Both the position numbers and the translations under genes were made by a program. From a phage, in the sequence record PX393109.1: a stretch of DNA of 64,000 bases; one strand, 5' to 3'. This document shows, in pieces, positions 6,359 to 51,919 of the stretch. The notes beneath the pieces are model-generated. The model was not told where the DNA came from and did not search any database. It saw only the letters and a program-made list of their open reading frames with translations. The stretch's first letter is position 1, and every line of letters begins with the position of its first letter.

Positions 6359-7072
6359 ATGTCTACTAAGATGATGCCACACCATCTGGCTCCGAATAAA
6401 CTGTTTAACCGATTCCTGTCATATCACGACTCCTACCACTGCGCAATTGACATCGAGACCGAGTATCTCGATTTTAAAGAGCCTGGGGTAGTTCTATCTG
6501 TAGGTATGGTGACGGTTGGTCCTGATCACTACTCCCACGTCTACTTCACTATTGATCGAGAAGAGTCGCTGGCTCTGGGTATGAAGTCTGACCCTAACGT
6601 AGTTGAATGGCTCAACACTCTCCCGAAACCCGTCCGTGATGCTGCATATGCTAATCCAGTATCTGTTGACGAAGCTCTGGATATCATCGAAGAGTACGTA
6701 GCTAAGGTACTACAGGATCCTGGTTGCCAGATGTTGAACTTCATCGGTAACGCACCAGAGTTCGACCAGGGATTCCTGGATTGGTACTTTAAGGCTAAAG
6801 GACGTAAGACCCCGTTCCTACACTGGATGAATCGAGATTACCGCACTCTGGCTAGTCTGCAGCTGATCTCATTCGATGATCGTCGCATGATTAAAGAAGA
6901 ACTGAGTAGCCAGCACGAGTCTATGTCTGATCACCATGCATTGTTCGATGCGATGCTGGAAGCTAAGACTTGGGTTCGCACCATCAATCGTGTAAAAGAG
7001 TTACAGGATCTGGAGCACGAGGTGAATACCATGATTGCTATGCAGGGTAACTCTGTGGAAGATGGAGAGTAA
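6359..7072 (+). CDS. DEDDh-type 3'-5' exonuclease (DnaQ/RNase T-like)
   Basis: Exo I-like CAIDIETEY, later NAPEFDQGFL, C-terminal HHALFDAMLEA (H-x4-D motif III). Confidence 0.6.
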   Translation: MSTKMMPHHLAPNKLFNRFLSYHDSYHCAIDIETEYLDFKEPGVVLSVGMVTVGPDHYSHVYFTIDREESLALGMKSDPNVVEWLNTLPKPVRDAAYANPVSVDEALDIIEEYVAKVLQDPGCQMLNFIGNAPEFDQGFLDWYFKAKGRKTPFLHWMNRDYRTLASLQLISFDDRRMIKEELSSQHESMSDHHALFDAMLEAKTWVRTINRVKELQDLEHEVNTMIAMQGNSVEDGE

Positions 7073-7385
7073 GCTTTGTCGGGTGGTTAATATACGTACC
7101 AATCCTAACTACGATTTATATGTTGGGAGAGGTACTATATTCGGGAATAAGTGGAGCCATAAAGATTTACCTAACGCTATTAACGTAGGTTCCCGAACAT
7201 TAGCCATCGCGAAATACAGACTATGGTTCCACCAGCAAGTAAAAGATGGCCACATAAGCATCTCCTACTTACGGACTCTTAAGGGTAAGACTTTAGGGTG
7301 CTCCTGCTTACCGTTACCATGTCATGCTCAAGTTATAGCTGACTTCGTTAATTCATTACCTGACGAAGATTCCGCTCTTTCGTAG
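7062..7385 (+). CDS. DUF4326-like protein (CxC...PCH motif)
   Basis: YVGRG...GNKW...LGCSCLPLPCHAQVIADF resembles the DUF4326 signature; family assignment from memory. Confidence 0.4.
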   Translation: MESKLCRVVNIRTNPNYDLYVGRGTIFGNKWSHKDLPNAINVGSRTLAIAKYRLWFHQQVKDGHISISYLRTLKGKTLGCSCLPLPCHAQVIADFVNSLPDEDSALS

Positions 7386-7410
7386 CCTCCAAAGGCTGTT
7401 AAACTGTTGG
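7372..7410 (+). promoter_or_regulatory. conserved intergenic motif copy 4
   Basis: CCGCTCTTTCGTAGCCTCCAAAGGCTGTTAAACTGTTGG; 22 nt before ATG 7424. Confidence 0.5.
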
Positions 7411-7423
7411 AAAGGAAATCTCT

Positions 7424-7648
7424 ATGCAATCACGTCGTATTGGTTTGTTAAGCGGTATCGGTATGGTTCTGGCTGGATTAGGTCATATGTGGCCCACCCC
7501 AGCAGTGTCTGCTAAAGGCTATGACGGATTCCGTCGCGCCTGTACCAAGGTAAGCTGCCCTAAGACTACTACAGCATCTGCATTAAAGCGTGCGGCTAAG
7601 AAGGCTAAAGGCCGTAAGGTTAATAAGCAACGTCACAAGGGTAAATAA
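7424..7648 (+). CDS. small basic protein with N-terminal hydrophobic segment
   Basis: 74-aa ORF, GLLSGIGMVLAGLG then lysine-rich tail. Confidence 0.45.
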   Translation: MQSRRIGLLSGIGMVLAGLGHMWPTPAVSAKGYDGFRRACTKVSCPKTTTASALKRAAKKAKGRKVNKQRHKGK

Positions 7649-8028
7649 TGTCTCATATGACCCGAGAAGAAATCGTATTGATGGTGGCTAAGGTGTGTCA
7701 CGAAGCTAATCGTGCATACTGCCATTCTATCGGAGACTTCACCCAATTAAGCTGGGAAGCAACATCCGATGAAATAAAACAGTCGGCTATTGATGGAGCG
7801 TATAACTGCTTACACAATAACCGTATCAGCCCAGAAGAGTCCCATGAATTCTGGGTTAAAACTAAAAAGGAGCAGGGCTGGAAGTATGGAGAAATCAAAG
7901 ATCTCGCAGCTAAGACGCACCCGTGTATGGTTCCATATTCACGGTTGCCGGAAGAGCATCGAGTCAAAGATCACCTCTTCACCAGCATCTGCGCAGCATT
8001 CATTAAACAGTACAAAAGGGCATCATGA
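7648..8028 (+). CDS. RyR-domain protein
   Basis: [43 protein letters not shown] matches the RyR domain core (W..GW.YG......HP.LVPY..L). Confidence 0.55.
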
Positions 8029-8495
8029 TGACCGTAGTTCAAGTAAAGAAAACTATTAACTGGGACGACTCTCTGGAGTTACCGAAATACGCTAAAGCTG
8101 GTGATGCTGGTCTTGATCTTCGTGCGATGATTAAGACTGACGAAATCGATAAAATCGCTGTAAATCCTGGCGAAACTATCCTGGTCCCTACCGGTCTAGC
8201 GATCAACATCGGCGATCCGAACATCGCTTCTGTGATTCTTCCCCGCAGCGGCCTCGGCCATAAAAATGGCATCGTACTGGGTAACTTGGTTGGTCTTATC
8301 GACTCCGGCTATCAAGGAGAACTGATGGTGTCTGTGTGGAACCGTAGTAACGAATCTTTCGTTATTAACCACGGCGACCGTATCGCTCAAATGGTGTTTC
8401 TTCCCGTTATCCATCCAGAGCTCCAGCTTGTGGATAAATTCTCTGATGTTTCTGAACGTGGCGACGGTGGGTTTGGCCATTCCGGGATTAAGTAA
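8025..8495 (+). CDS. dut: dUTP diphosphatase
   Basis: [55 protein letters not shown]: all five dUTPase motifs in order. Confidence 0.85.
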
Positions 8496-8526
8496 TCCTG
8501 GGGTAGTTAGACTACGGTAATTACTA

Positions 8527-8550
8527 TTGACCTCTTTGCGGAGAGGTCAA
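8527..8550 (+). promoter_or_regulatory. perfect 9-bp inverted repeat (operator- or terminator-like hairpin)
   Basis: TTGACCTCT-TTGCGG-AGAGGTCAA between dut and the next gene; no T-run. Confidence 0.35.
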
Positions 8551-8577
8551 TGTTATTCTACCATAGAACCGAGGAAT

Positions 8578-8781
8578 ATGATGGATATTGAGCAACTAAC
8601 TAAGGATCTTAATCGTAACCAGATTACGGTTATTCGTTCGGAGCACTTAGCTCCCAAGACTATGATCGTGTCTGATGATATCTGGGGCACATTCAAGAAT
8701 AATAATAATAATAATAATAATAATGCTACTGTAGAAGCTACAGATGAAGAATCTGTTAAGAACATGCTGGAGCATCCGTAA
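8578..8781 (+). CDS. small protein with poly-Asn tract
   Basis: ORF track 8527..8781 (TTG start lies inside the hairpin); ATG at 8578 after GAGGAAT; 9 consecutive Asn encoded by (AAT)9. Confidence 0.45.
   Translation: MMDIEQLTKDLNRNQITVIRSEHLAPKTMIVSDDIWGTFKNNNNNNNNNATVEATDEESVKNMLEHP
8698..8724 (+). repeat. (AAT)9 trinucleotide microsatellite inside a CDS
   Basis: 27 nt of perfect AAT repeats, in frame. Confidence 0.9.
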
Positions 8782-9404
8782 TGATCCTTGGTAAATCTTA
8801 TATTGAGCAGGCAATTACTCAAGGATTATGGACCTATCACAGTTATCTGGACAATCAGGAACCACGAATCGGACAGAATAGTGTAGATGTACGCTTAGCT
8901 CCGTTCTTCCTGGTTCCTCAAAAGATGCCTGATGGCCATGTAGTAGATCCCTATAAACCATGTACTCTTCCGGAGTATCGCGAGGTAGAGGCACTATACT
9001 ACGATCTTAAACCTGGGGAGTTCATCTTAGGCTCAGCATCTGAACGTATCGACTGTACTACCATGTTGCCTGAGAAGTGGTTCGAGCATTATGACCCACG
9101 ATACCGTAACAGCACTGTAGACCGTGGTGTGGCATTCTGTCAGCATTACGACGGTCGCAGCACTATGGGTCGTCTGGGAATACTGAGCCATGTCAGTGCA
9201 GGTTTCGGGGACTTTGGATTCAAGGGAGCATTTACTCTAGAGATTGTTAACCTAAGCCCTAACACTATCCGACTGCGTTCTAACATGCGCATCGGTCAGA
9301 TTTACTTTACTGAGGTTGCTGGTGGTGGCTACGACCTTTACAAAGGTTACGACCAGACTGACTTTAAACCAGTCGCACCAATCATAGGTCGCGATCGTTT
9401 CTAA
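8781..9404 (+). CDS. dCTP deaminase-like protein (dUTPase superfamily)
   Basis: VDVRLAPFF, GSASERIDCT, RSTMGRLGI, GFGDFGFKGAFTLEIVN, MRIGQIYF resemble Dcd motifs; adjacent to dut. Confidence 0.55.
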   Translation: MILGKSYIEQAITQGLWTYHSYLDNQEPRIGQNSVDVRLAPFFLVPQKMPDGHVVDPYKPCTLPEYREVEALYYDLKPGEFILGSASERIDCTTMLPEKWFEHYDPRYRNSTVDRGVAFCQHYDGRSTMGRLGILSHVSAGFGDFGFKGAFTLEIVNLSPNTIRLRSNMRIGQIYFTEVAGGGYDLYKGYDQTDFKPVAPIIGRDRF

Positions 9405-9416
9405 TTAGGAGAAATT

Positions 9417-9794
9417 ATGTACAACGCATTCAACGGACCTCATCCAGAGGCTCTGCCGGTAATCGACGAAGCTAATCTGGTAAAGCGCTTCCGCGAGAGC
9501 TATGCTAGCCAGGTTGATTTAAAACAAATCATAGTTCTGGCATGTAATCAGCGTAAAGCTGCTATCCAGGATAAAATCGACCAGTTAAATAAGGCCAAAG
9601 TTCGTTTAATCGACAGTCTGGCTGGTGAAGGTACTAAGTTGGGTGCGGCTGATATTAGCGACCAGGTCAGAGGCATGGTCGCAGATACCAATAATCTCCA
9701 ATCGTTAATCAAAGAGATTGACGACTCGGTGAACATGGTATTCTCAGCTCTGGGTGGGCTACTGGAAGAGCCCACCACAGAGAAATCTCTGTAA
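9417..9794 (+). CDS. hypothetical protein
   Basis: 125-aa ORF, GGAGAAATT RBS. Confidence 0.5.
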   Translation: MYNAFNGPHPEALPVIDEANLVKRFRESYASQVDLKQIIVLACNQRKAAIQDKIDQLNKAKVRLIDSLAGEGTKLGAADISDQVRGMVADTNNLQSLIKEIDDSVNMVFSALGGLLEEPTTEKSL

Positions 9795-9825: not shown

Positions 9826-10188
9826 ATGACTTCTGCCGATTGCGTAGCTATGGTCGTCTACTATGAGGCCAGGGGAGAGTCGGAACGTGGGCAGTTAGCT
9901 GTAGCCCACGTGGTACTCAACCGAGCGAAGAAATACGGTATAAGCCCATGTAAGGTAGTTAAAAACAGGAATACCTTTCCGTGGTACCGTCACATCTCTT
10001 ACCAGAATATGAAAGATCCTAAATCTAAGGCATCTGCTATTCATATTGCGGCAAGAGTTAAATACAGTGAAGATCCCACATTCGGGGCTACTCACTTTCA
10101 TAATGTAAAGGTTAGGCCTAACTGGAAGGGCTATAGAATGACAGCCAGAATAGGCGACCACAAGTTCTATAAGAAGGTAAAGAAATGA
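9826..10188 (+). CDS. SleB/CwlJ-like cell-wall hydrolase domain protein
   Basis: YYEARGESERGQLAVAHVVLNR is the hallmark N-terminal motif of the Hydrolase_2 (SleB) family. Confidence 0.55.
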   Translation: MTSADCVAMVVYYEARGESERGQLAVAHVVLNRAKKYGISPCKVVKNRNTFPWYRHISYQNMKDPKSKASAIHIAARVKYSEDPTFGATHFHNVKVRPNWKGYRMTARIGDHKFYKKVKK

Positions 10189-10739
10189 CTTTGAGTAATA
10201 TGGATATAGACAACCTAATCGGTATGTTGGGAGGTACAGCAGTACTCGTTCTAACAGTCCGTCCTATCGACCAGGCTGAGAGCTATGATATAGTAGTCCG
10301 AGAGTCTAGCTTTGAATTCGAGCAAGCTCTTCGTCATGCTATGCACGATCTGACTATTACCAATAACGGTATTAAGCACCGTCTACTTAAAGTGTCGATA
10401 GGTATTAAATCGTCCGATGTATTCGCTAATCCTGATATCGTAAAGACCTGGGAAATCTGCGATAATCCACACACTCCTAAGATGAACGAAGCTATCGAGC
10501 GCGACCAGCAGTATCAAGAAGTCGTTCATCAGGCGGTAGAGCTAGTATTTTTACTTAGCAACTGCCAGACTATTTATTCAGCGTATGAAGGCAAGGTCGA
10601 TATGACTCAAGAGTCGGTTCGGGAGGCCGTTCGTGTATCTCTTTTCAATATCTTATCTGGTAAGTCAGAAACCAAGATGGATGCTGAAGTAGAGAAGGTA
10701 ATTAAACCATTCCGGGAATTATTTGTACGGAGTATCTGA
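10185..10739 (+). CDS. hypothetical protein
   Basis: 184-aa ORF overlapping upstream stop. Confidence 0.5.
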   Translation: MTLSNMDIDNLIGMLGGTAVLVLTVRPIDQAESYDIVVRESSFEFEQALRHAMHDLTITNNGIKHRLLKVSIGIKSSDVFANPDIVKTWEICDNPHTPKMNEAIERDQQYQEVVHQAVELVFLLSNCQTIYSAYEGKVDMTQESVREAVRVSLFNILSGKSETKMDAEVEKVIKPFRELFVRSI

Positions 10740-10981
10740 TGGACTTGATGAAATTAAACATCAAACTAGAGGGAGTGTGTAAGGCAGGGATAGTGAAGGT
10801 ATGCTATAACTGTAAAGAGCACCCCACTCTACGTCTTGACGAGAATAACCACTTACATCTGGAGTGTCCTAACTGTAAATGGGACGACCATGAAGTGGTT
10901 ACTGATTTAGATATGGAAGATGAAGCAGTTGCTGATCGTGAGCTGGGGCTTATGGTCGAGATGTGGAATCGTCATAACTAA
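10739..10981 (+). CDS. small zinc-ribbon protein
   Basis: CYNCKEH...CPNCKW. Confidence 0.5.
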   Translation: MDLMKLNIKLEGVCKAGIVKVCYNCKEHPTLRLDENNHLHLECPNCKWDDHEVVTDLDMEDEAVADRELGLMVEMWNRHN

Positions 10982-10993
10982 ATTAATCTACAC

Positions 10994-11035
10994 AAAAATG
11001 GGACTCACTCTATCACGAGTGAGTCCCATTTATTT
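10994..11035. terminator. bidirectional rho-independent terminator at early/late boundary
   Basis: perfect 15-bp stem AAATGGGACTCACTC/GAGTGAGTCCCATTT, 6-nt loop, A-run on left and T-rich on right; sits between convergent gene blocks. Confidence 0.8.
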
Positions 11036-11366
11036 AGTGCTTAAAGATGCCGATGATGGCGTCGTTAAACAATCCTACCAGTACACTAATAATTGCTAAC
11101 GCACCACTCCAGAATTTAATCTTGTCATTTACTTCCTTAATCTCCTTCCTTAGATCATCCTGCTCATCTTCAAGGTCAGAAATCTTCTTAGACATGAAAT
11201 TCTGTGCAACGACTAGCTCACGGATATCCGCTAATATCTCCGTCTGCTTACGAGAAGACTCCATAAGTTGATCAAGGATTACTCCCTGAAACTTCTGGTT
11301 AGATTCAAGTCTCGCTAGCCTATCGAGTTGGTGTCCACCGAACTCAGACTCTTCCCTCTCGCGCAT
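11034..11366 (-). CDS. coiled-coil protein with C-terminal TM helix (lysis-associated?)
   Basis: 110-aa ORF; C-terminal FWSGALAIISVLVGLF; position in lysis cassette. Confidence 0.35.
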   Translation of the reverse strand: MREREESEFGGHQLDRLARLESNQKFQGVILDQLMESSRKQTEILADIRELVVAQNFMSKKISDLEDEQDDLRKEIKEVNDKIKFWSGALAIISVLVGLFNDAIIGIFKH

Positions 11367-11376
11367 ACAAGATTCC

Positions 11377-11586
11377 TCACTTCTGATTGCTCTCTAGGCA
11401 ATCTATATAAGATACCAATTTAGCTAATTCAGCGTTAGGAATCCTGATCCCGTCTTTTTCCGCTATCGCTGCTATCGGTGGACGGTCGCACCTTACCTTC
11501 GGCGTCTGCATCTGTACCGGTAGGCTGTTGCAGCTTACCAAACTTAGACTCCCAAGCACCAGTAGGGTCATTTTTAATTTCTTCAT
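11377..11586 (-). CDS. outer-membrane lipoprotein, o-spanin candidate
   Basis: signal peptide with lipobox LVSC (MKKLKMTLLVLGSLSLVSC), small size, near endolysin. Confidence 0.5.
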   Translation of the reverse strand: MKKLKMTLLVLGSLSLVSCNSLPVQMQTPKVRCDRPPIAAIAEKDGIRIPNAELAKLVSYIDCLESNQK

Positions 11587-11665
11587 CTTTCTTCTCCCGA
11601 GAGCGAGTCTGCATAGCAGATACGAGTAGGGTAATAAGCTGAAGAATAAGAGTAAGAGCTTTCAT
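11435..11665 (-). CDS. N-terminal TM protein overlapping o-spanin in another frame (i-spanin-like, uncertain)
   Basis: MKALTLILQLITLLVSAM then charged domain; overlapped arrangement like Rz/Rz1 but short. Confidence 0.3.
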   Translation of the reverse strand: MKALTLILQLITLLVSAMQTRSREKKDEEIKNDPTGAWESKFGKLQQPTGTDADAEGKVRPSTDSSDSGKRRDQDS

Positions 11666-11668
11666 ACC

Positions 11669-12085
11669 TTACTCCTTTTTACCCTCTGGATTTTTGATCA
11701 GAGACTTACCGTAATCAAGGGCATCAATAGCCTGGGTAGCCTTACTCACTAGGTGCGGATCATCCTGAGTTTGGACTACGTCGGAAAGAACCTGCTTAGC
11801 TTTATCCATGGTCTGCACTTTCTGCTCATCCTGAGCGGCAGCTTTCTTATCTACCCTGGCAGCTGATTTAGGCAAGTTCAGAGCGACGAAGTTTAAGATG
11901 GACGATGCATAACCGAGGTATTTCTTAATTACCCCAATGTATTCGTCGTCTTTAGTATTAGGAGTGATCTTAGCGATCTTCTCCAGAGCTTGCACCAGCA
12001 CTGATGCGAAGCCGATGATGGCTAGTGCAAGAGCGATGTAATCATCGATCTTGGATCCATCAAGTACATCCAGGATATTGTCCAT
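11669..12085 (-). CDS. holin-like membrane protein
   Basis: two hydrophobic segments and a charged C-terminus, immediately downstream of endolysin. Confidence 0.4.
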   Translation of the reverse strand: MDNILDVLDGSKIDDYIALALAIIGFASVLVQALEKIAKITPNTKDDEYIGVIKKYLGYASSILNFVALNLPKSAARVDKKAAAQDEQKVQTMDKAKQVLSDVVQTQDDPHLVSKATQAIDALDYGKSLIKNPEGKKE

Positions 12086-12099
12086 TATTGATCACCATA

Positions 12100-12747
12100 T
12101 TAAAGAGTTAAAGTCTGATTTGCTCTGCGTAGTACAGGCAGTCGGTCAGGTACGGTCGCAGCAGACCCATTTATCTTCTGGGTTACTTTGGTGAATGCGT
12201 CCTGATCTGCTAATTGATTTAATTTATTTTTATCCCAGAACCACCCTGCAGTAAGCATGATCGTTTCGAAATCCGTCTCTACTAACTCTGGATCTTCTAC
12301 CAAACGGTCATCGCCAAAGATACTCAAAGAGGCCTCTCGATAGTTAGCTTTGCCAGTTAGATGCATAGCTCCACGGCCAATGTACTTATACCCATCTCCG
12401 CTAGCTGGAGTTCCGTTACCCATGCGATTAGCATACACCTGATTGGCTAACTTCTCAGGGTCGCGTATGTAAGCATTAGCATTAAGCTTACCAGGTTCAC
12501 CGCGAAGAGTAAATCTACTCGGCCACACAGCTACCAGACGAGACGCAGAGGTATAATACAGGGACTCCACAAACTTAGTGTAGTCCCGAGTTTCAAAGGC
12601 AGTCTGCGCCATAAAATAGCGCAGACGACGATTGGTATTGATACCGTAACGCTCGATAGTAGTATTAATGGCGGGTAGCAGCTTTTCCAGCACTTCCGTT
12701 GAAGTTGTCGGGAGGAACTTCTTCAGCTGGTCAAGTGTAACGCTCAT
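12100..12747 (-). CDS. endolysin, glycoside hydrolase family 19
   Basis: FMAQTAFET, YIGRGAMHLTGKANY, AGWFW: GH19 (class I chitinase-like) catalytic motifs. Confidence 0.85.
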   Translation of the reverse strand: MSVTLDQLKKFLPTTSTEVLEKLLPAINTTIERYGINTNRRLRYFMAQTAFETRDYTKFVESLYYTSASRLVAVWPSRFTLRGEPGKLNANAYIRDPEKLANQVYANRMGNGTPASGDGYKYIGRGAMHLTGKANYREASLSIFGDDRLVEDPELVETDFETIMLTAGWFWDKNKLNQLADQDAFTKVTQKINGSAATVPDRLPVLRRANQTLTL

Positions 12748-34314: not shown

Positions 34315-34950
34315 CTATTTAATAAACCAGGATCTTACATGATCCTCATCCGGCAGATATGCTGGGGTGAAGGACAGTTGCACCTTAGCCCATAACGGCT
34401 GACCAGTAGAGCGAGCTATTTCCTTGCTGTACTGAGTCGACACGTTCACAAGTATAAGGCTAGTTGCCCTGAACCACTGGCCGATCTGCAGAGTCCATGT
34501 ACCTGTTATAGCGGTATCCGGATTGAAATTACCAGTCGCCTTGGTTACAGAGTACCCATTAGGAGCTCCGAACATAAGTCCGTTCTTGGTAGTGTATGTT
34601 ACCCCAGCCAGGAACTCTTTAACTATGTCCAAAGGTCTGATGGATGGATTGTATGAGATAATTGTCAGAGGCACTGGAAATACTGGTTTGGTACTTCCTC
34701 GCCACTGAGCGATAGTTTCACGAATATTTCGTATAACCATCTGATCCATACCCACGGTATTAGCTACCGCGTTAGCACCTCGCGTTAAGGTACCAGCCAT
34801 CAAGTTTTCACCAGATTCAAACAGAGACGAAATATCGAATCCGAAATCCGTCTCTATAAGACCTACAGTACGGGACTTGTTACCAGGATGGACTAAGACA
34901 ATTCTAGCATCTGGATTCGCGTATAGCTTCTCGATGTCTAATACTGCCAT
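34315..34950 (-). CDS. tail protein downstream of tape measure
   Basis: 211-aa ORF, start coupled to tape-measure stop. Confidence 0.4.
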   Translation of the reverse strand: MAVLDIEKLYANPDARIVLVHPGNKSRTVGLIETDFGFDISSLFESGENLMAGTLTRGANAVANTVGMDQMVIRNIRETIAQWRGSTKPVFPVPLTIISYNPSIRPLDIVKEFLAGVTYTTKNGLMFGAPNGYSVTKATGNFNPDTAITGTWTLQIGQWFRATSLILVNVSTQYSKEIARSTGQPLWAKVQLSFTPAYLPDEDHVRSWFIK

Positions 34951-37808
34951 TATGAGAACACCATCTTGTTGAAGAACGCCAGACCATAGTCATCAATAGT
35001 GTCACTCTTATCCGTAACCACTGAAGGTACGTTAGGAGTTATAGCAGCAGGATCCTGGTTCCTGGTGGAACCAGCAGCCATAGCGGCCAATTGATTATTC
35101 TGATCTTGACGTTGTTTATTAACATCGTCTGTAGGGGTAGGAGCCTTAGGGACCTCGAGAGGTACGTTCTGAGCAACCTGGGTAGCTCCTGACTTAGATG
35201 CCTCAGCATCAGAACCATTCTTCATCCATTCTGCAGTATATGCAGCACGGTCTGCTAACCCATTATACCCACCATTGACCGCCTTAGTTGCTACTTCAAC
35301 AGTAGCTCCTTTCTTCTCCATCTGTGGTCGCACACGATCTTTCCAATATGCAACCGCTAACTTATTGGCGATTTCAGGATCTTCAGCCATCTCAGGATTA
35401 TTTTCGAGATCTATACCCAGCATCTTACCATACTTCTGGTAATTAGCCCTACCAGTAAGCTGTATCCAGCCACGACCCTTATAACGAACCCCGTCCCCAG
35501 GATTTACGTTACCCAGGTCTTTACGACCCTCGTACGCTTTACCAGAGGCTAGTTCTTTATTATAACGGAAGTTACCAGACTCATGCTGAACCTGGCCCAT
35601 GAATAGAGCCAGTTCTTTATCGTCGATTCCCTGCTGCTTAGCATACTCTGCCAGACTATTCTTACGCTCCGTCTGCTCCTTAGAGCTGGGGAGGTATCGA
35701 GAGGCATTCTGCATAGCGGACTGTAGGATACTACCACCGGCATCAACAGCACTGTCATAACCATTGGATATTATTCCACCAACAGTTCTTGCGCCATTAA
35801 CTATGGAGGCACCTGCTCCGATAATCCCATTGGATACCGCAACAGCTCCTTTCTTAAGTCCTTTAAAGAAGTCACCGACTACCGGTAGGTCTGATAGCCA
35901 ATCAAATAGGCCACCAATACCTTCACCTATAGACTTCATAGGATCATTTATAAATTCTGTAACCAAGTTAGATAATTCACTGATTTCTCCGGTTATGGAC
36001 TTGGTTACCGAGTCGTAACTATCGGAGAACCACTTAGAGGTATCGGAGACGGACTTGGAAAGCCAGTCGGATGCATTCTTATACATCCCTGAGAATGACG
36101 CCGTTAGGTTATTTGCAATATTAACCGCACCTTCGTATGTCTTCTGTACAGTATCTACAGCAGACTTAGCGACATTCACTACATCCTCTGGAGAGGCTAA
36201 CCCGAAAGTTAACCCAGAGGCTAGTGAGGCTGCCGATGAGCCAGCCTTAGCCCAGTTATCATCGCTGCCGAATAGCTCCTTAGCCTTATCTCCATCCCAT
36301 CCAGAGACAGCATCGTAAACTCCCATACCAGCAGTTACGGCTAACCCAATTCCTGGAATGAACTTAGCTCCTCTAAGGCCAGCTCTCAGAAGCGCACCAC
36401 CTCCACGAGCAGCGCCTCTCGCAAGTCCTCCGGTGGCAGCTGCGTCGACTGCTCTGCCTGCCATCCTGCCAAGTCTACCGAACCTGCTGAGTCCACGACC
36501 GAGACGAGTCCTGCCTCTTCTTCCCCTACTTCTTCTACCTCTGCGGCCACGCTCATCGCCACCGCCGATAAGATCATCAAAGATAGAATCAGCAGCACCC
36601 TGCTTCTGTTCGTTAGCGAAAGGATCAATTTCTTCATGGTTAGCTCTTCCATTAGCTCTGGTTACCGATACCAGTTGCTCATCGATATCCACCAAAGTAG
36701 ACTGACCATTAATTAACTGAGTCTGCTTACGGGACAGTTCGTCCTGGCCAGACCTAGTCTCATTAATTAACTCTCGAATGCTGTTGTTAATCTCGTCCAG
36801 CTTCTGATTCTGCTCCTCTTCTGGAGTAGGTCCGAAACTGGGTTTTGGATTTACGGTAGCATCTGGAGTAGTAATCTCGACCTTAGTCTCTTTACCGTCG
36901 ACTTTAGCAGAGGCCTCAGTGGAAGATTCTCCATCGGGTTTATTTTCTGATTTAAGAATCTCTCGAGATATGGCCTTTAATTCTTCGTCAGTAGTATCCG
37001 GTTCGTCTTTCCTTTTACGGAACATGGATGATATTGCACCATCCAATTTATCAGATATACCGAATACACTATCCAGGTCCCCTAAACCTAAGGCACCTAG
37101 ACCAGATGAGAGTGCTTCCTTGCGGACAGAACCTACGGAAAACTGCGATGGGGTATTAAGGAACGAATCCCTTAAATTACGGCCAGTTTGACGTATGTTA
37201 AATCTGTCAAGAGTATCCCTCTCATCCTTACTCCTGTTCGTTAAGTTAGCAACCTTTACCGTATCAGAATATTTAATCTTTACGTTCTGATTGGCTAACT
37301 CAGCTCTAGCTTGCTCAATGATGCGGTTATTCTTCCGCATATTGATAGTACTAAGTGAGGAATTGGATACGTTAAGTACTCGAAGTAACCCACTCAGTTC
37401 TCTCATAGCAGTCATACGGACGCCACGAGTAAGTCTAGAGTCATTTAATATTGACTGATAGGTGTCGAGTAAAGATTCTGCAGCGATGGCCTTTTGATCC
37501 TCGGCAGTAGCGTACATATCCGCAACCTGGCCTACTTTATCTCTTAAGGAGATCAGCTGCTCAGCTTCCTGGGTAGAGAACTTAGCCCTACCGTAAAACT
37601 TACCCATCAGTGTATTCAGGGTCTTAACTTCATCAGAGCTAAGACCGACATCTACATCGTTGCTGGAGAGTATCTTAACAGTAGAACGAATCCCGATAAG
37701 ATCTTCTTCCAGTTTAGACCTGGCATGCTCGTAATCAGAGGCATCCTTAATCGGATCGGTAGCTTCTGTACGAGCAATCCCAGATATGCCTCTAACTATG
37801 CTAACCAT
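34950..37808 (-). CDS. tail tape measure protein with embedded GH19 lysozyme-like domain
   Basis: 952 aa; coiled-coil N-terminus, Arg/Gly-rich tract, then FMGQVQHESGNF...RYKGRGWIQLTGRANY (GH19 motifs) near the C-terminus. Confidence 0.75.
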   Translation of the reverse strand: MVSIVRGISGIARTEATDPIKDASDYEHARSKLEEDLIGIRSTVKILSSNDVDVGLSSDEVKTLNTLMGKFYGRAKFSTQEAEQLISLRDKVGQVADMYATAEDQKAIAAESLLDTYQSILNDSRLTRGVRMTAMRELSGLLRVLNVSNSSLSTINMRKNNRIIEQARAELANQNVKIKYSDTVKVANLTNRSKDERDTLDRFNIRQTGRNLRDSFLNTPSQFSVGSVRKEALSSGLGALGLGDLDSVFGISDKLDGAISSMFRKRKDEPDTTDEELKAISREILKSENKPDGESSTEASAKVDGKETKVEITTPDATVNPKPSFGPTPEEEQNQKLDEINNSIRELINETRSGQDELSRKQTQLINGQSTLVDIDEQLVSVTRANGRANHEEIDPFANEQKQGAADSIFDDLIGGGDERGRRGRRSRGRRGRTRLGRGLSRFGRLGRMAGRAVDAAATGGLARGAARGGGALLRAGLRGAKFIPGIGLAVTAGMGVYDAVSGWDGDKAKELFGSDDNWAKAGSSAASLASGLTFGLASPEDVVNVAKSAVDTVQKTYEGAVNIANNLTASFSGMYKNASDWLSKSVSDTSKWFSDSYDSVTKSITGEISELSNLVTEFINDPMKSIGEGIGGLFDWLSDLPVVGDFFKGLKKGAVAVSNGIIGAGASIVNGARTVGGIISNGYDSAVDAGGSILQSAMQNASRYLPSSKEQTERKNSLAEYAKQQGIDDKELALFMGQVQHESGNFRYNKELASGKAYEGRKDLGNVNPGDGVRYKGRGWIQLTGRANYQKYGKMLGIDLENNPEMAEDPEIANKLAVAYWKDRVRPQMEKKGATVEVATKAVNGGYNGLADRAAYTAEWMKNGSDAEASKSGATQVAQNVPLEVPKAPTPTDDVNKQRQDQNNQLAAMAAGSTRNQDPAAITPNVPSVVTDKSDTIDDYGLAFFNKMVFS

Positions 37809-50092: not shown

Positions 50093-51919
50093 TTAGCCAC
50101 CCACTCGTTGCTTAATAATGTTCCGAAACATCTCCTTCGCATCCCTAGACTTATTAAGTTCGTGGAGTGCAACTTGAAGATCTTCAACCGTGGCAGTAGA
50201 CCCTATCTTATGGATATTCTCTTTAACTGACCACTGAGATCCGCAGACAGCATCCGCGATATCTTTACTCCCCGACGGAGGGTGGTCGAACTTACCTTCT
50301 CCTTCCTCCAACTCTTTAAGCTCCTTGATCAGTTTAGGTACAGCAGGAATAGTGCTGCGACCTTCGAGAATCGAGTTTCTTAAGTAGTTATACGGGTCTT
50401 TAGTCCGGTCTACAGATAGCAGAGCAGTCTCGAACCCAGCCAGAGTTAAATCCTGACGTAAGTTCGTGGATTGGTATCCATCTGTGGTTACCATTTTAAT
50501 TGGGTAACCTTGCTGAGATGCTTCTATTAAGAAGTTCTTAATCTTGTAGATAGGGACTTCCTGACCAGGCTGGCAGGTAATTTCTAATGCCCACTCAGTA
50601 ACAATCTTAGGTTCACGAGTAACCATGCGAGTACTGGTCAGAGGATCATAGGTCTCTTGGTCTACATAACCATCGAGATAAGAACAGGCTATACCAGTTG
50701 AGTCGTTCTTAAGACCCAAGTCAATATGGATGAACCGATCCTTCTTATTAAGGAAGGCAAGTCTGGGGACATCTATAGTCTGGTGAAGAGTCTGCTCCTT
50801 ATCGAAGAAGTCCAGAACTACCACGTTAGATTCAGTAGGGTTAATGTGGTCAGCTGCTCGGTTAAGCACCTCGTAGGACGAGATGAACGACCATGTACCG
50901 AATGTAGACACACCAGCAAGATCCCTGAGAGACTTAACAATGTTAGTCTCGAATTCCTGTCTATGTTCAACAGGTACAGAGATAATACGAGATGGCTCCA
51001 GACCGTCTTTAATCTTGAGAGTATTCTCATCAAAGATAAACGGATCTCGATACTGGTCACCAGCATAGACGTAGAACATTTCCCCAGAATACCCTCCGAG
51101 GTGCCATTTAGCTTCCCAGTGGGCATATCTGAATAACAGATAGTCGTTAATTCCTTTCTTGGCTTTATCCTCTAGACGAACATCGATAAAGGAACGGTTT
51201 CCCTTATTCGAAGAGTCTAGAATCAAGTGGCCAATCATCTCTACCCCTTTACCCCCGAAACGAGAGTTCATACGAGTATAGATGGTGTCGAAGTTATCTT
51301 CTGCCTGACCATGAACTACGGTCATGTCGTTTATCTCTGAGAAGATAGCACCTACGGTAGCCTGCCCCAGAGCATCCTGACCACGAGAACCGAATCCTAA
51401 GTCCACATTCTTAATGAACAAAGTACGAGGATTCTTACCACCAGTCATCTTACCTTTGAAGAATGGACTGTTCTCTATCCACTCGATGATCTCTGCGTAG
51501 AGTACATCGTAGGATAGACCTTTAGTGGCGTTCATCAACATCCAACGAATTACTGTGGATGGCAGAAGTTTAAAATGAGCGCGAGGATCTCTAAGACATA
51601 GCAATTTGCACAGGTCGTAGAGAGTGATAATCTTAGCAGCAGTTGACTTACCCAGACCGATACCACCAGTTAGATAAATCTCTACAGCTGGTGAAGTGTA
51701 AGGAGTAGGGTAAATCTTAGCTAGAGCATCCATCCATATAGGATAGACCGAGCAGACACCGTCAGCATCTACCAGAGACTTACCCAGGTAGTACGGATCC
51801 ATTATGAAATCCTGGATCGTCGGAACCCGCTCCTCGTAGCCACTCATCAACGCTAACTGATGCATAGCTTCGAGTCTAGAGCCACATGCTTCAATAAACT
51901 CATCTAATGCATCAGTCAT
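50093..51919 (-). CDS. terminase large subunit
   Basis: Walker A LTGGIGLGKSTAAK near N-terminus, 608 aa, first large gene of late operon. Confidence 0.8.
   Translation of the reverse strand: MTDALDEFIEACGSRLEAMHQLALMSGYEERVPTIQDFIMDPYYLGKSLVDADGVCSVYPIWMDALAKIYPTPYTSPAVEIYLTGGIGLGKSTAAKIITLYDLCKLLCLRDPRAHFKLLPSTVIRWMLMNATKGLSYDVLYAEIIEWIENSPFFKGKMTGGKNPRTLFIKNVDLGFGSRGQDALGQATVGAIFSEINDMTVVHGQAEDNFDTIYTRMNSRFGGKGVEMIGHLILDSSNKGNRSFIDVRLEDKAKKGINDYLLFRYAHWEAKWHLGGYSGEMFYVYAGDQYRDPFIFDENTLKIKDGLEPSRIISVPVEHRQEFETNIVKSLRDLAGVSTFGTWSFISSYEVLNRAADHINPTESNVVVLDFFDKEQTLHQTIDVPRLAFLNKKDRFIHIDLGLKNDSTGIACSYLDGYVDQETYDPLTSTRMVTREPKIVTEWALEITCQPGQEVPIYKIKNFLIEASQQGYPIKMVTTDGYQSTNLRQDLTLAGFETALLSVDRTKDPYNYLRNSILEGRSTIPAVPKLIKELKELEEGEGKFDHPPSGSKDIADAVCGSQWSVKENIHKIGSTATVEDLQVALHELNKSRDAKEMFRNIIKQRVGG

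Follow-up and report, generated by a model that had tools for sequence, protein, structure and literature searches.

A leaderless SleB/CwlJ-type cell-wall hydrolase encoded outside the lysis cassette of an Escherichia coli myovirus, a candidate accessory lysin

We analyzed a 64,000-nucleotide stretch of phage DNA (sequence record PX393109.1; hereafter, the window) in which a sequence-only reading had proposed a SleB/CwlJ-type cell-wall hydrolase domain. The open-reading frame (ORF) encoding it lies exactly where that reading had placed it, begins with ATG and specifies 120 amino acids. It belongs to a rightward block, made up of small ORFs together with genes of nucleotide metabolism, in which it is the third gene from the end; this block converges on a leftward late block ending in the lysis cassette. 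The features of the locus, together with a GH19 domain encoded further along the window, are as follows.

8025..8495, plus strand: dUTPase, nucleotide-metabolism block
8781..9404, plus strand: dCTP deaminase, nucleotide-metabolism block
9826..10188, plus strand: SleB/CwlJ-type (PF07486) hydrolase coding sequence; 13.9 kDa, pI 10.1, single domain, without leader
9841..9951, plus strand: covarying cysteine pair, from the Cys6 codon (9841-9843) to the Cys42 codon (9949-9951)
9859..9924, plus strand: motif YYEARGESERGQLAVAHVVLNR, amino acids 12-33 of the hydrolase, with the E14 codon at 9865-9867
10185..10739, plus strand: 184-aa ORFan, its ATG overlapping the hydrolase stop codon (ATGA, 10185-10188)
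10739..10981, plus strand: 80-aa CxxC...CxxC protein (CYNC...CPNC), zinc-ribbon-like, last gene of the rightward operon (ORF call)
10996..11031, no strand assigned: 15-bp perfect hairpin GGGACUCACUC with A-rich/U-rich flanks (dG -26.3 kcal/mol, z -8.1)
11034..12747, minus strand: lysis cassette, at the end of the leftward late block
11034..11366, minus strand: 110-aa coiled-coil protein with a single predicted C-terminal transmembrane (TM) segment, last gene of the lysis cassette
11377..11665, minus strand: overlapping spanin-like pair, 76 aa with an N-terminal TM segment plus a 69-aa lipoprotein (lipobox LVSC)
11435-11665 and 11377-11586, minus strand: the individual, overlapping ORFs of the spanin-like pair
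11669..12085, minus strand: holin-like 138-aa membrane protein, assigned by position and TM segment only
12100..12747, minus strand: GH19 endolysin (profile matches), without signal sequence
35334..35627, minus strand: GH19 domain (profile matches), amino acids 728-825 of a 952-aa tape-measure-like protein (34950..37808)

The rightward and leftward blocks are separated by a gap of 52 nt that holds the hairpin at 10996-11031, which is probably a bidirectional intrinsic terminator. The hydrolase gene had been described as separate from the lysis cassette, and this stands for strand and operon: the two lie on opposite strands, in different, convergent operons with the terminator between them. It does not stand for distance, for the rightward operon ends at 10981, about 50 nt from the cassette, and the hydrolase gene itself lies about 0.85 kb from the cassette, about 1.5 kb from the holin-like gene and about 1.9 kb from the endolysin gene. 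The topology of the 110-aa cassette protein, a C-terminally anchored coiled coil, is unusual for a spanin or a holin. Both of the GH19 assignments made in the sequence-only reading, the endolysin and the domain in the tape measure, were recovered by profile searches, the 952-aa protein being called tape-measure-like from its position downstream of the sheath gene. With the hydrolase they make up the three peptidoglycan-active domains that had been anticipated.

Within the rightward block, the ATGA overlap makes translational coupling between the hydrolase and the 184-aa ORFan possible. The ORFan is found only in the lineage of the window phage, has no match in Pfam, PHROG or NCBIfam and no TM segment above threshold; its AlphaFold2 model is mediocre (pLDDT 74, pTM 0.44) and returned no fold match in the PDB. 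Considered as a YpeB-, GerQ- or immunity-like partner of the hydrolase, it was set aside, having neither a family match nor a fold match and being restricted to the lineage. The 80-aa protein that follows is likewise without a match in Pfam, PHROG and NCBIfam. A scan for sigma-70 promoters near the hydrolase gene found no excess over shuffled sequence, and early expression of the gene is probable only from its place in the dUTPase/dCTP-deaminase block. Further upstream, a hairpin with a 12-bp stem (8525-8552) follows the dUTPase gene and is overlapped by an 84-aa ORF (8527-8781) with a run of nine Asn codons; this ORF is the stretch with the lowest conservation between isolates (83-89% identity).

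The hydrolase has no signal peptide, signal-anchor-release (SAR) or TM segment, its maximum 19-residue hydropathy being 0.50, in agreement with the sequence-only reading. In the AlphaFold2 model, helix 1 of the catalytic domain spans residues 3-15. The reading frame is closed by a TGA two codons before the ATG, only 31 nt separate the gene from the preceding one, and the N-terminus MTSADC is identical in a syntenic relative of 80% identity; a longer ORF, or a frameshift, that would supply a signal peptide is therefore excluded.

Membership of the hydrolase in PF07486 (Hydrolase_2), the SleB/CwlJ-type cell-wall hydrolases, is established by a Pfam match over the full profile (positions 1-100 of 100) with an E-value of 2.5e-20 and 73.4 bits, the gathering cutoff being 27 bits. 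The motif YYEARGESERGQLAVAHVVLNR, which had been quoted as typical of the family, falls inside this match, and its occurrence by chance is rejected by the same E-value. PHROG 938, annotated as 'endolysin', matches the protein at 1e-22. A sequence-only search of the PDB gave weak matches to the SleB catalytic domains 4f55 and 4fet, none reaching beyond their N-terminal motif. The AlphaFold2 model, computed from a nine-sequence input, has a pLDDT of 92 and a pTM of 0.86, and a Foldseek search of the PDB with this model was significant only for the same two SleB catalytic domains (TM 0.73-0.78, rmsd 2.5-3.4 A, 25% identity), with no other fold at E<1; the best match was 4fet_B (TM 0.78, rmsd 2.5 A, 119 columns). 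The assignment to the SleB domain is secure because the full-profile Pfam match and the fold match coincide. The protein is nonetheless not SleB proper: the SleB equivalog model TIGR02869 (NCBIfam) scores 34.3 bits against a cutoff of 236.5 and is matched at model positions 90-201 only, and the hydrolase comes without a peptidoglycan-binding domain, signal peptide, YpeB or spore context. No YpeB partner or spore-cortex setting was found among its neighbors, which lack matches in Pfam, PHROG and NCBIfam, the 184-aa neighbor lacking a fold match as well.

The residues expected of the family are largely in place. The signature of the first PF07486 helix, Y-x-E-[AS]-R-G-E, is present, with E14 aligned to the Glu of YGESRGE in SleB 4f55 and 4fet. 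Li et al. 2012 and Jing et al. 2012 are cited in PMC11148199 and PMC12331253 as identifying this Glu as the catalytic residue of SleB. In an alignment of 162 family members, E14 is invariant (162/162) and H112 is likewise fully conserved; the hydrolase retains both, as well as N32, R33, G22, W100 and F114, and E14, H112, N32 and R33 belong to a set of near-invariant positions that it keeps together with about 30 others. Its only departures from near-invariant positions are Q50T and S52P, which turn the family motif QFSW into TFPW. To our knowledge, Bacillus SleB has no Gln at the position of the Gln in the QFSW motif. Across the 162 members, Cys6 and Cys42 are both present in 155 and both absent in six, the one remaining sequence being truncated at its N-terminus. 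Such perfect covariation is the signature of a disulfide and of a periplasm-adapted fold, so that Cys6 and Cys42 probably form a disulfide pair in the hydrolase. The pair is kept even in leaderless, presumably cytoplasmic, copies of the family. The C-terminal tail of the hydrolase (KFYKKVKK) is cationic.

Among the relatives of the window are Escherichia phages vB_EcoM_IME392 (about 95% identical) and EP_H11 (about 91%). In the record of the former (MH719082, with 85 features in 116 kb) the hydrolase gene occupies 10722-11084 without a CDS annotation, and in that of the latter (OP688485) it is found at 7954-8316, labelled 'hypothetical protein' (WBU87722.1). Across the window phage, IME392 and EP_H11, no gene of the neighborhood is better conserved than those of the hydrolase and the GH19 endolysin, at 99.4-99.8% nucleotide identity versus 83-97% for the genes around them. 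Comparison with the 80%-identical protein of the syntenic relative, a more distant phage present in three metagenome assemblies (L007-L009), yields a dN/dS of 0.11 for the hydrolase, with dS about 1.0. The idea that the gene is an inactive relic is rejected, since the invariant residues are retained and the dN/dS is 0.11. This metagenomic relative preserves the gene order around the hydrolase: dUTPase, dCTP deaminase, a 123-aa gene, the hydrolase, a 178-aa gene, an 80-aa gene and the convergent lysis and tail genes. EP_H11 carries an additional CDS of 651 nt (6886-7536) between its dCTP deaminase gene and a 125-aa gene; it is missing from IME392 and from the window (~9404-9417), and the stretch just before the hydrolase is thus a small indel hotspot. 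When IME392 and EP_H11 are left aside, the large terminase (50093-51919, minus strand) comes nearest to its counterparts in Acinetobacter phage Ab1-TPeters (59%) and Ralstonia phage RP13 (58%), which places the window phage in a sparsely sampled, rare lineage of E. coli myoviruses.

Beyond this lineage the family is large, and the identity of the hydrolase to relatives outside its own small lineage is no more than 50%. A tblastn search located homologues in 1,112 phage records, with hosts including Salmonella, Escherichia, Pseudomonas and Klebsiella among others, most of them annotated as 'cell wall hydrolase', 'SleB' or 'endolysin', and an exhaustive protein search with the hydrolase returned 9,260 clusters at E<=1e-3. 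Dozens of phage models in BFVD share its fold, including domains within proteins of >1000 aa. Where the complete homologue from an isolated phage was read, it usually carries an export signal, as in T5-like phages, Vequintavirus, Pakpunavirus and Chaseviridae: classical signal peptides are carried by those of T5-like TrudiRoth (149 aa), Vequintavirus naam (166 aa) and phiEcoM-GJ1 (gp74, 184 aa), and the homologue of Pakpunavirus K8 (186 aa) has an N-terminal TM segment. The only leaderless protein in this fully read set is a 129-aa copy in Roseobacter phage CRP-171, encoded in the early region before the RNA polymerase gene.

Leaderless copies are more frequent in the wider family. Starts only a few residues from the conserved Cys are seen in 46 of the 157 nearest clusters at 50% identity, and at least 37-44 of 80 IMG/VR loci encode a leaderless copy. 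These loci were gathered with an eight-sequence alignment as the query; the hydrolase protein alone retrieved no close relative from IMG/VR. A small TM (holin-like) gene stands beside the leaderless homologue at 14 of 33 IMG/VR loci, a proportion that is uninformative given the background TM rate of 18% per small ORF. Leaderless hydrolases are common in PF07486, amounting to about a third to half of the closest relatives.

Location in an early block, absence of a leader and status as a third wall enzyme had been taken to imply something out of the ordinary. This implication is not borne out, for leaderless versions are common and the placement of a SleB-type hydrolase at a distance from the holin, within the early or replication module, is a widespread, published pattern (PMC3326045, PMC11180984, PMC12210895, PMC7344957). 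It was described in 2012 for T5-like phages, with the SleB hydrolase in the early region and distant from the holin (PMC3326045); in Salmonella T5-like phages 'endolysins far from holin have the SleB domain' (PMC11180984); PVP-SE1 and BME3 are credited with 'two endolysins', the SleB homologue being located in the replication module (PMC12210895); and a similar SleB pattern is reported for Phapecoctavirus (PMC10793346). These four accounts contain no functional tests, and our literature search found no biochemically characterized SleB-type enzyme among phages of Gram-negative hosts. That the fold is damaging to Gram-negative walls is shown by two published results: the type VI secretion effector T6EC3, which has the SleB fold, makes E. 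coli cells round up and burst when it acts in the periplasm, an effect abolished by its Glu-to-Gln mutation (PMC11148199), and expression of CB7_83, a signal-peptide-bearing homologue from Certrevirus (Vequintavirinae), is toxic to E. coli (PMC7344957). The hydrolase is a previously unannotated, divergent member of a well-known phage protein family.

Taking together the gene, its family and fold, the family-invariant residues, purifying selection, the missing leader and the gene layout, we regard a soluble, holin-dependent accessory lysin of the lytic-transglycosylase type as the most likely reading, and we hold it with moderate confidence. By homology, the hydrolase would be a lytic transglycosylase that uses Glu14 to cut the MurNAc-GlcNAc bond; we infer both its activity and its bond specificity on this basis. 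The position of its operon makes it probable that transcription occurs before, or independently of, the late structural and lysis transcript. The absence of an export signal implies that the protein is cytoplasmic and kept from its substrate, where it would accumulate harmlessly: the cytoplasm contains no polymerized glycan, and a leaderless copy would therefore be harmless whenever it is made. Opening of the inner membrane by the holin would give the hydrolase its sole access to peptidoglycan. A leaderless GH19 endolysin encoded beside a holin-like TM gene implies that this holin releases soluble proteins, and the 13.9-kDa hydrolase would pass as well, acting as a second lysin beside the equally leaderless endolysin. 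The Cys6-Cys42 disulfide would probably form only once the protein is in the oxidizing periplasm. This reading is favored because the holin would pass the leaderless GH19 enzyme and because synthesis in the cytoplasm would be harmless. The ancestral action of the hydrolase may have been holin-independent, as the fully read homologues of isolated phages are mostly exported. Several points weigh against an accessory lysin: the gene and the lysis cassette are apart and face in opposite directions; the glycosidic bond in question is already a target of GH19, leaving unexplained what is gained from a second enzyme that cleaves glycan strands; and the substitutions Q50T and S52P depart from the family QFSW motif.

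Location outside the late block, in the nucleotide-metabolism block, would also suit an enzyme that locally loosens or remodels the wall early, having entered the periplasm ahead of lysis through non-classical export or with the help of a partner such as the 184-aa ORFan. Suggested roles for such an enzyme are cell enlargement, a block to division and superinfection exclusion, and the exported homologues of T5-like phages and Vequintavirus, encoded in T5-like early regions (PMC3326045) and beside rIIA/rIIB in Vequintavirus, may perform them. The overlap with a conserved downstream ORFan is suggestive of coupling, and the disulfide signature points to a fold that evolved in the periplasm. We nevertheless consider early remodeling unlikely, because the window protein has no leader, SAR or TM segment with which to reach the periplasm, the proposed partner has no TM segment above threshold, no recognizable fold and a distribution confined to one lineage, and leaderless homologues are common in phages that lack this partner.

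A redundant enzyme, or a non-lytic moonlighting protein that binds muropeptides or wall precursors in the cytoplasm or acts on neighboring cells after lysis, is a rather improbable reading, under which loss of the hydrolase would leave lysis unaffected. The target bond shared with GH19 and the change of QFSW to TFPW are consistent with it, and the KFYKKVKK tail and pI of 10.1 resemble the tails of lysins active on the outer membrane. However, the hydrolase keeps its catalytic Glu and almost every residue that is invariant in the family, the gene is under strong purifying selection (dN/dS 0.11), and the cytoplasm offers a lytic transglycosylase no polymerized glycan.

We give still less credence to a speculative variant in which the hydrolase would be a redox-latched pro-lysin, or would reshape the host wall early and non-lytically with the coupled 184-aa ORFan. 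As a pro-lysin it would be made early and stay inert in the reducing cytoplasm, where the Cys6-Cys42 disulfide cannot form, and it would be switched on only after holin-mediated entry into the oxidizing periplasm. If such a latch existed, the phage would possess a second lysin loaded in advance, with its activation chemically tied to the breach of the membrane.

A virion-associated or ejected lysin that aids genome passage through the wall is very improbable, since the gene lies outside the structural module and on the other strand, the tape-measure-like protein already bears a GH19 domain for wall passage and the product is a free 120-aa protein with no attachment domain, although it is small and very basic (pI 10.1) and SleB-fold domains do occur inside virion-like phage proteins of >1000 aa in BFVD.

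The value of the finding is practical and lies in annotation; it leaves existing knowledge unchanged. As the gene is unannotated in IME392 and 'hypothetical' in EP_H11, a rare lineage of E. coli myoviruses gains an annotated, third wall-active function. The wider question is why a SleB-type wall enzyme encoded away from the lysis cassette is retained by so many phages of Gram-negative hosts that already have an endolysin, and a leaderless hydrolase beside a leaderless GH19 endolysin would constitute a clean genetic system in which to address it.

Among known systems, SleB and CwlJ of Bacillus (4FET, 4F55) share with the window hydrolase the catalytic-domain fold and the first-helix motif with its catalytic Glu, and its single-domain architecture is its sole resemblance to CwlJ. 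Unlike them, it has no signal peptide, N-terminal peptidoglycan-binding domain, or YpeB or GerQ partner; its host, E. coli, has neither spores nor muramic-delta-lactam; and its covarying Cys pair is missing from Bacillus SleB. With canonical holin-dependent endolysins it has in common that it is a predicted soluble muralytic protein without an export signal, but it is not encoded in the lysis cassette beside the holin and spanins. It differs from SAR and signal-peptide endolysins in lacking an N-terminal signal or signal-anchor-release segment, and from virion-associated lysins in being a free, unfused 120-aa protein encoded in a nucleotide-metabolism block.

Nearer in kind are the hydrolases of Demerecviridae (T5-like), Vequintavirinae, Pakpunavirus and Stephanstirmvirinae, which belong to the same Pfam family at 34-41% identity and are likewise encoded outside the lysis cassette, in an early or replication module, as an extra to the main endolysin. 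They are longer (149-186 aa) and have a cleavable signal peptide or N-terminal TM segment (PMC7344957), whereas the window protein has 120 aa and no leader. The leaderless PF07486 proteins of uncultured phages and of CRP-171 (gp3) resemble it in length (115-145 aa) and in starting shortly before the conserved Cys, and gp3 also in its location in the early region; they differ in their hosts, many of them being marine, and in sequence, with an identity of 36-50%. T6EC3 has the same fold and the same catalytic Glu, but as the C-terminal toxin domain of a larger effector that has an immunity protein and is not phage-encoded. Finally, gp74 of phiEcoM-GJ1 (Chaseviridae), of the same family, differs in its length of 184 aa and its N-terminal signal or SAR-like segment, and, within the region inspected, it seems to be the protein annotated as endolysin, whereas the window gene comes in addition to a GH19 endolysin; located directly after the holin and annotated as an endolysin, gp74 supports a lytic role for this fold in E. 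coli phages.
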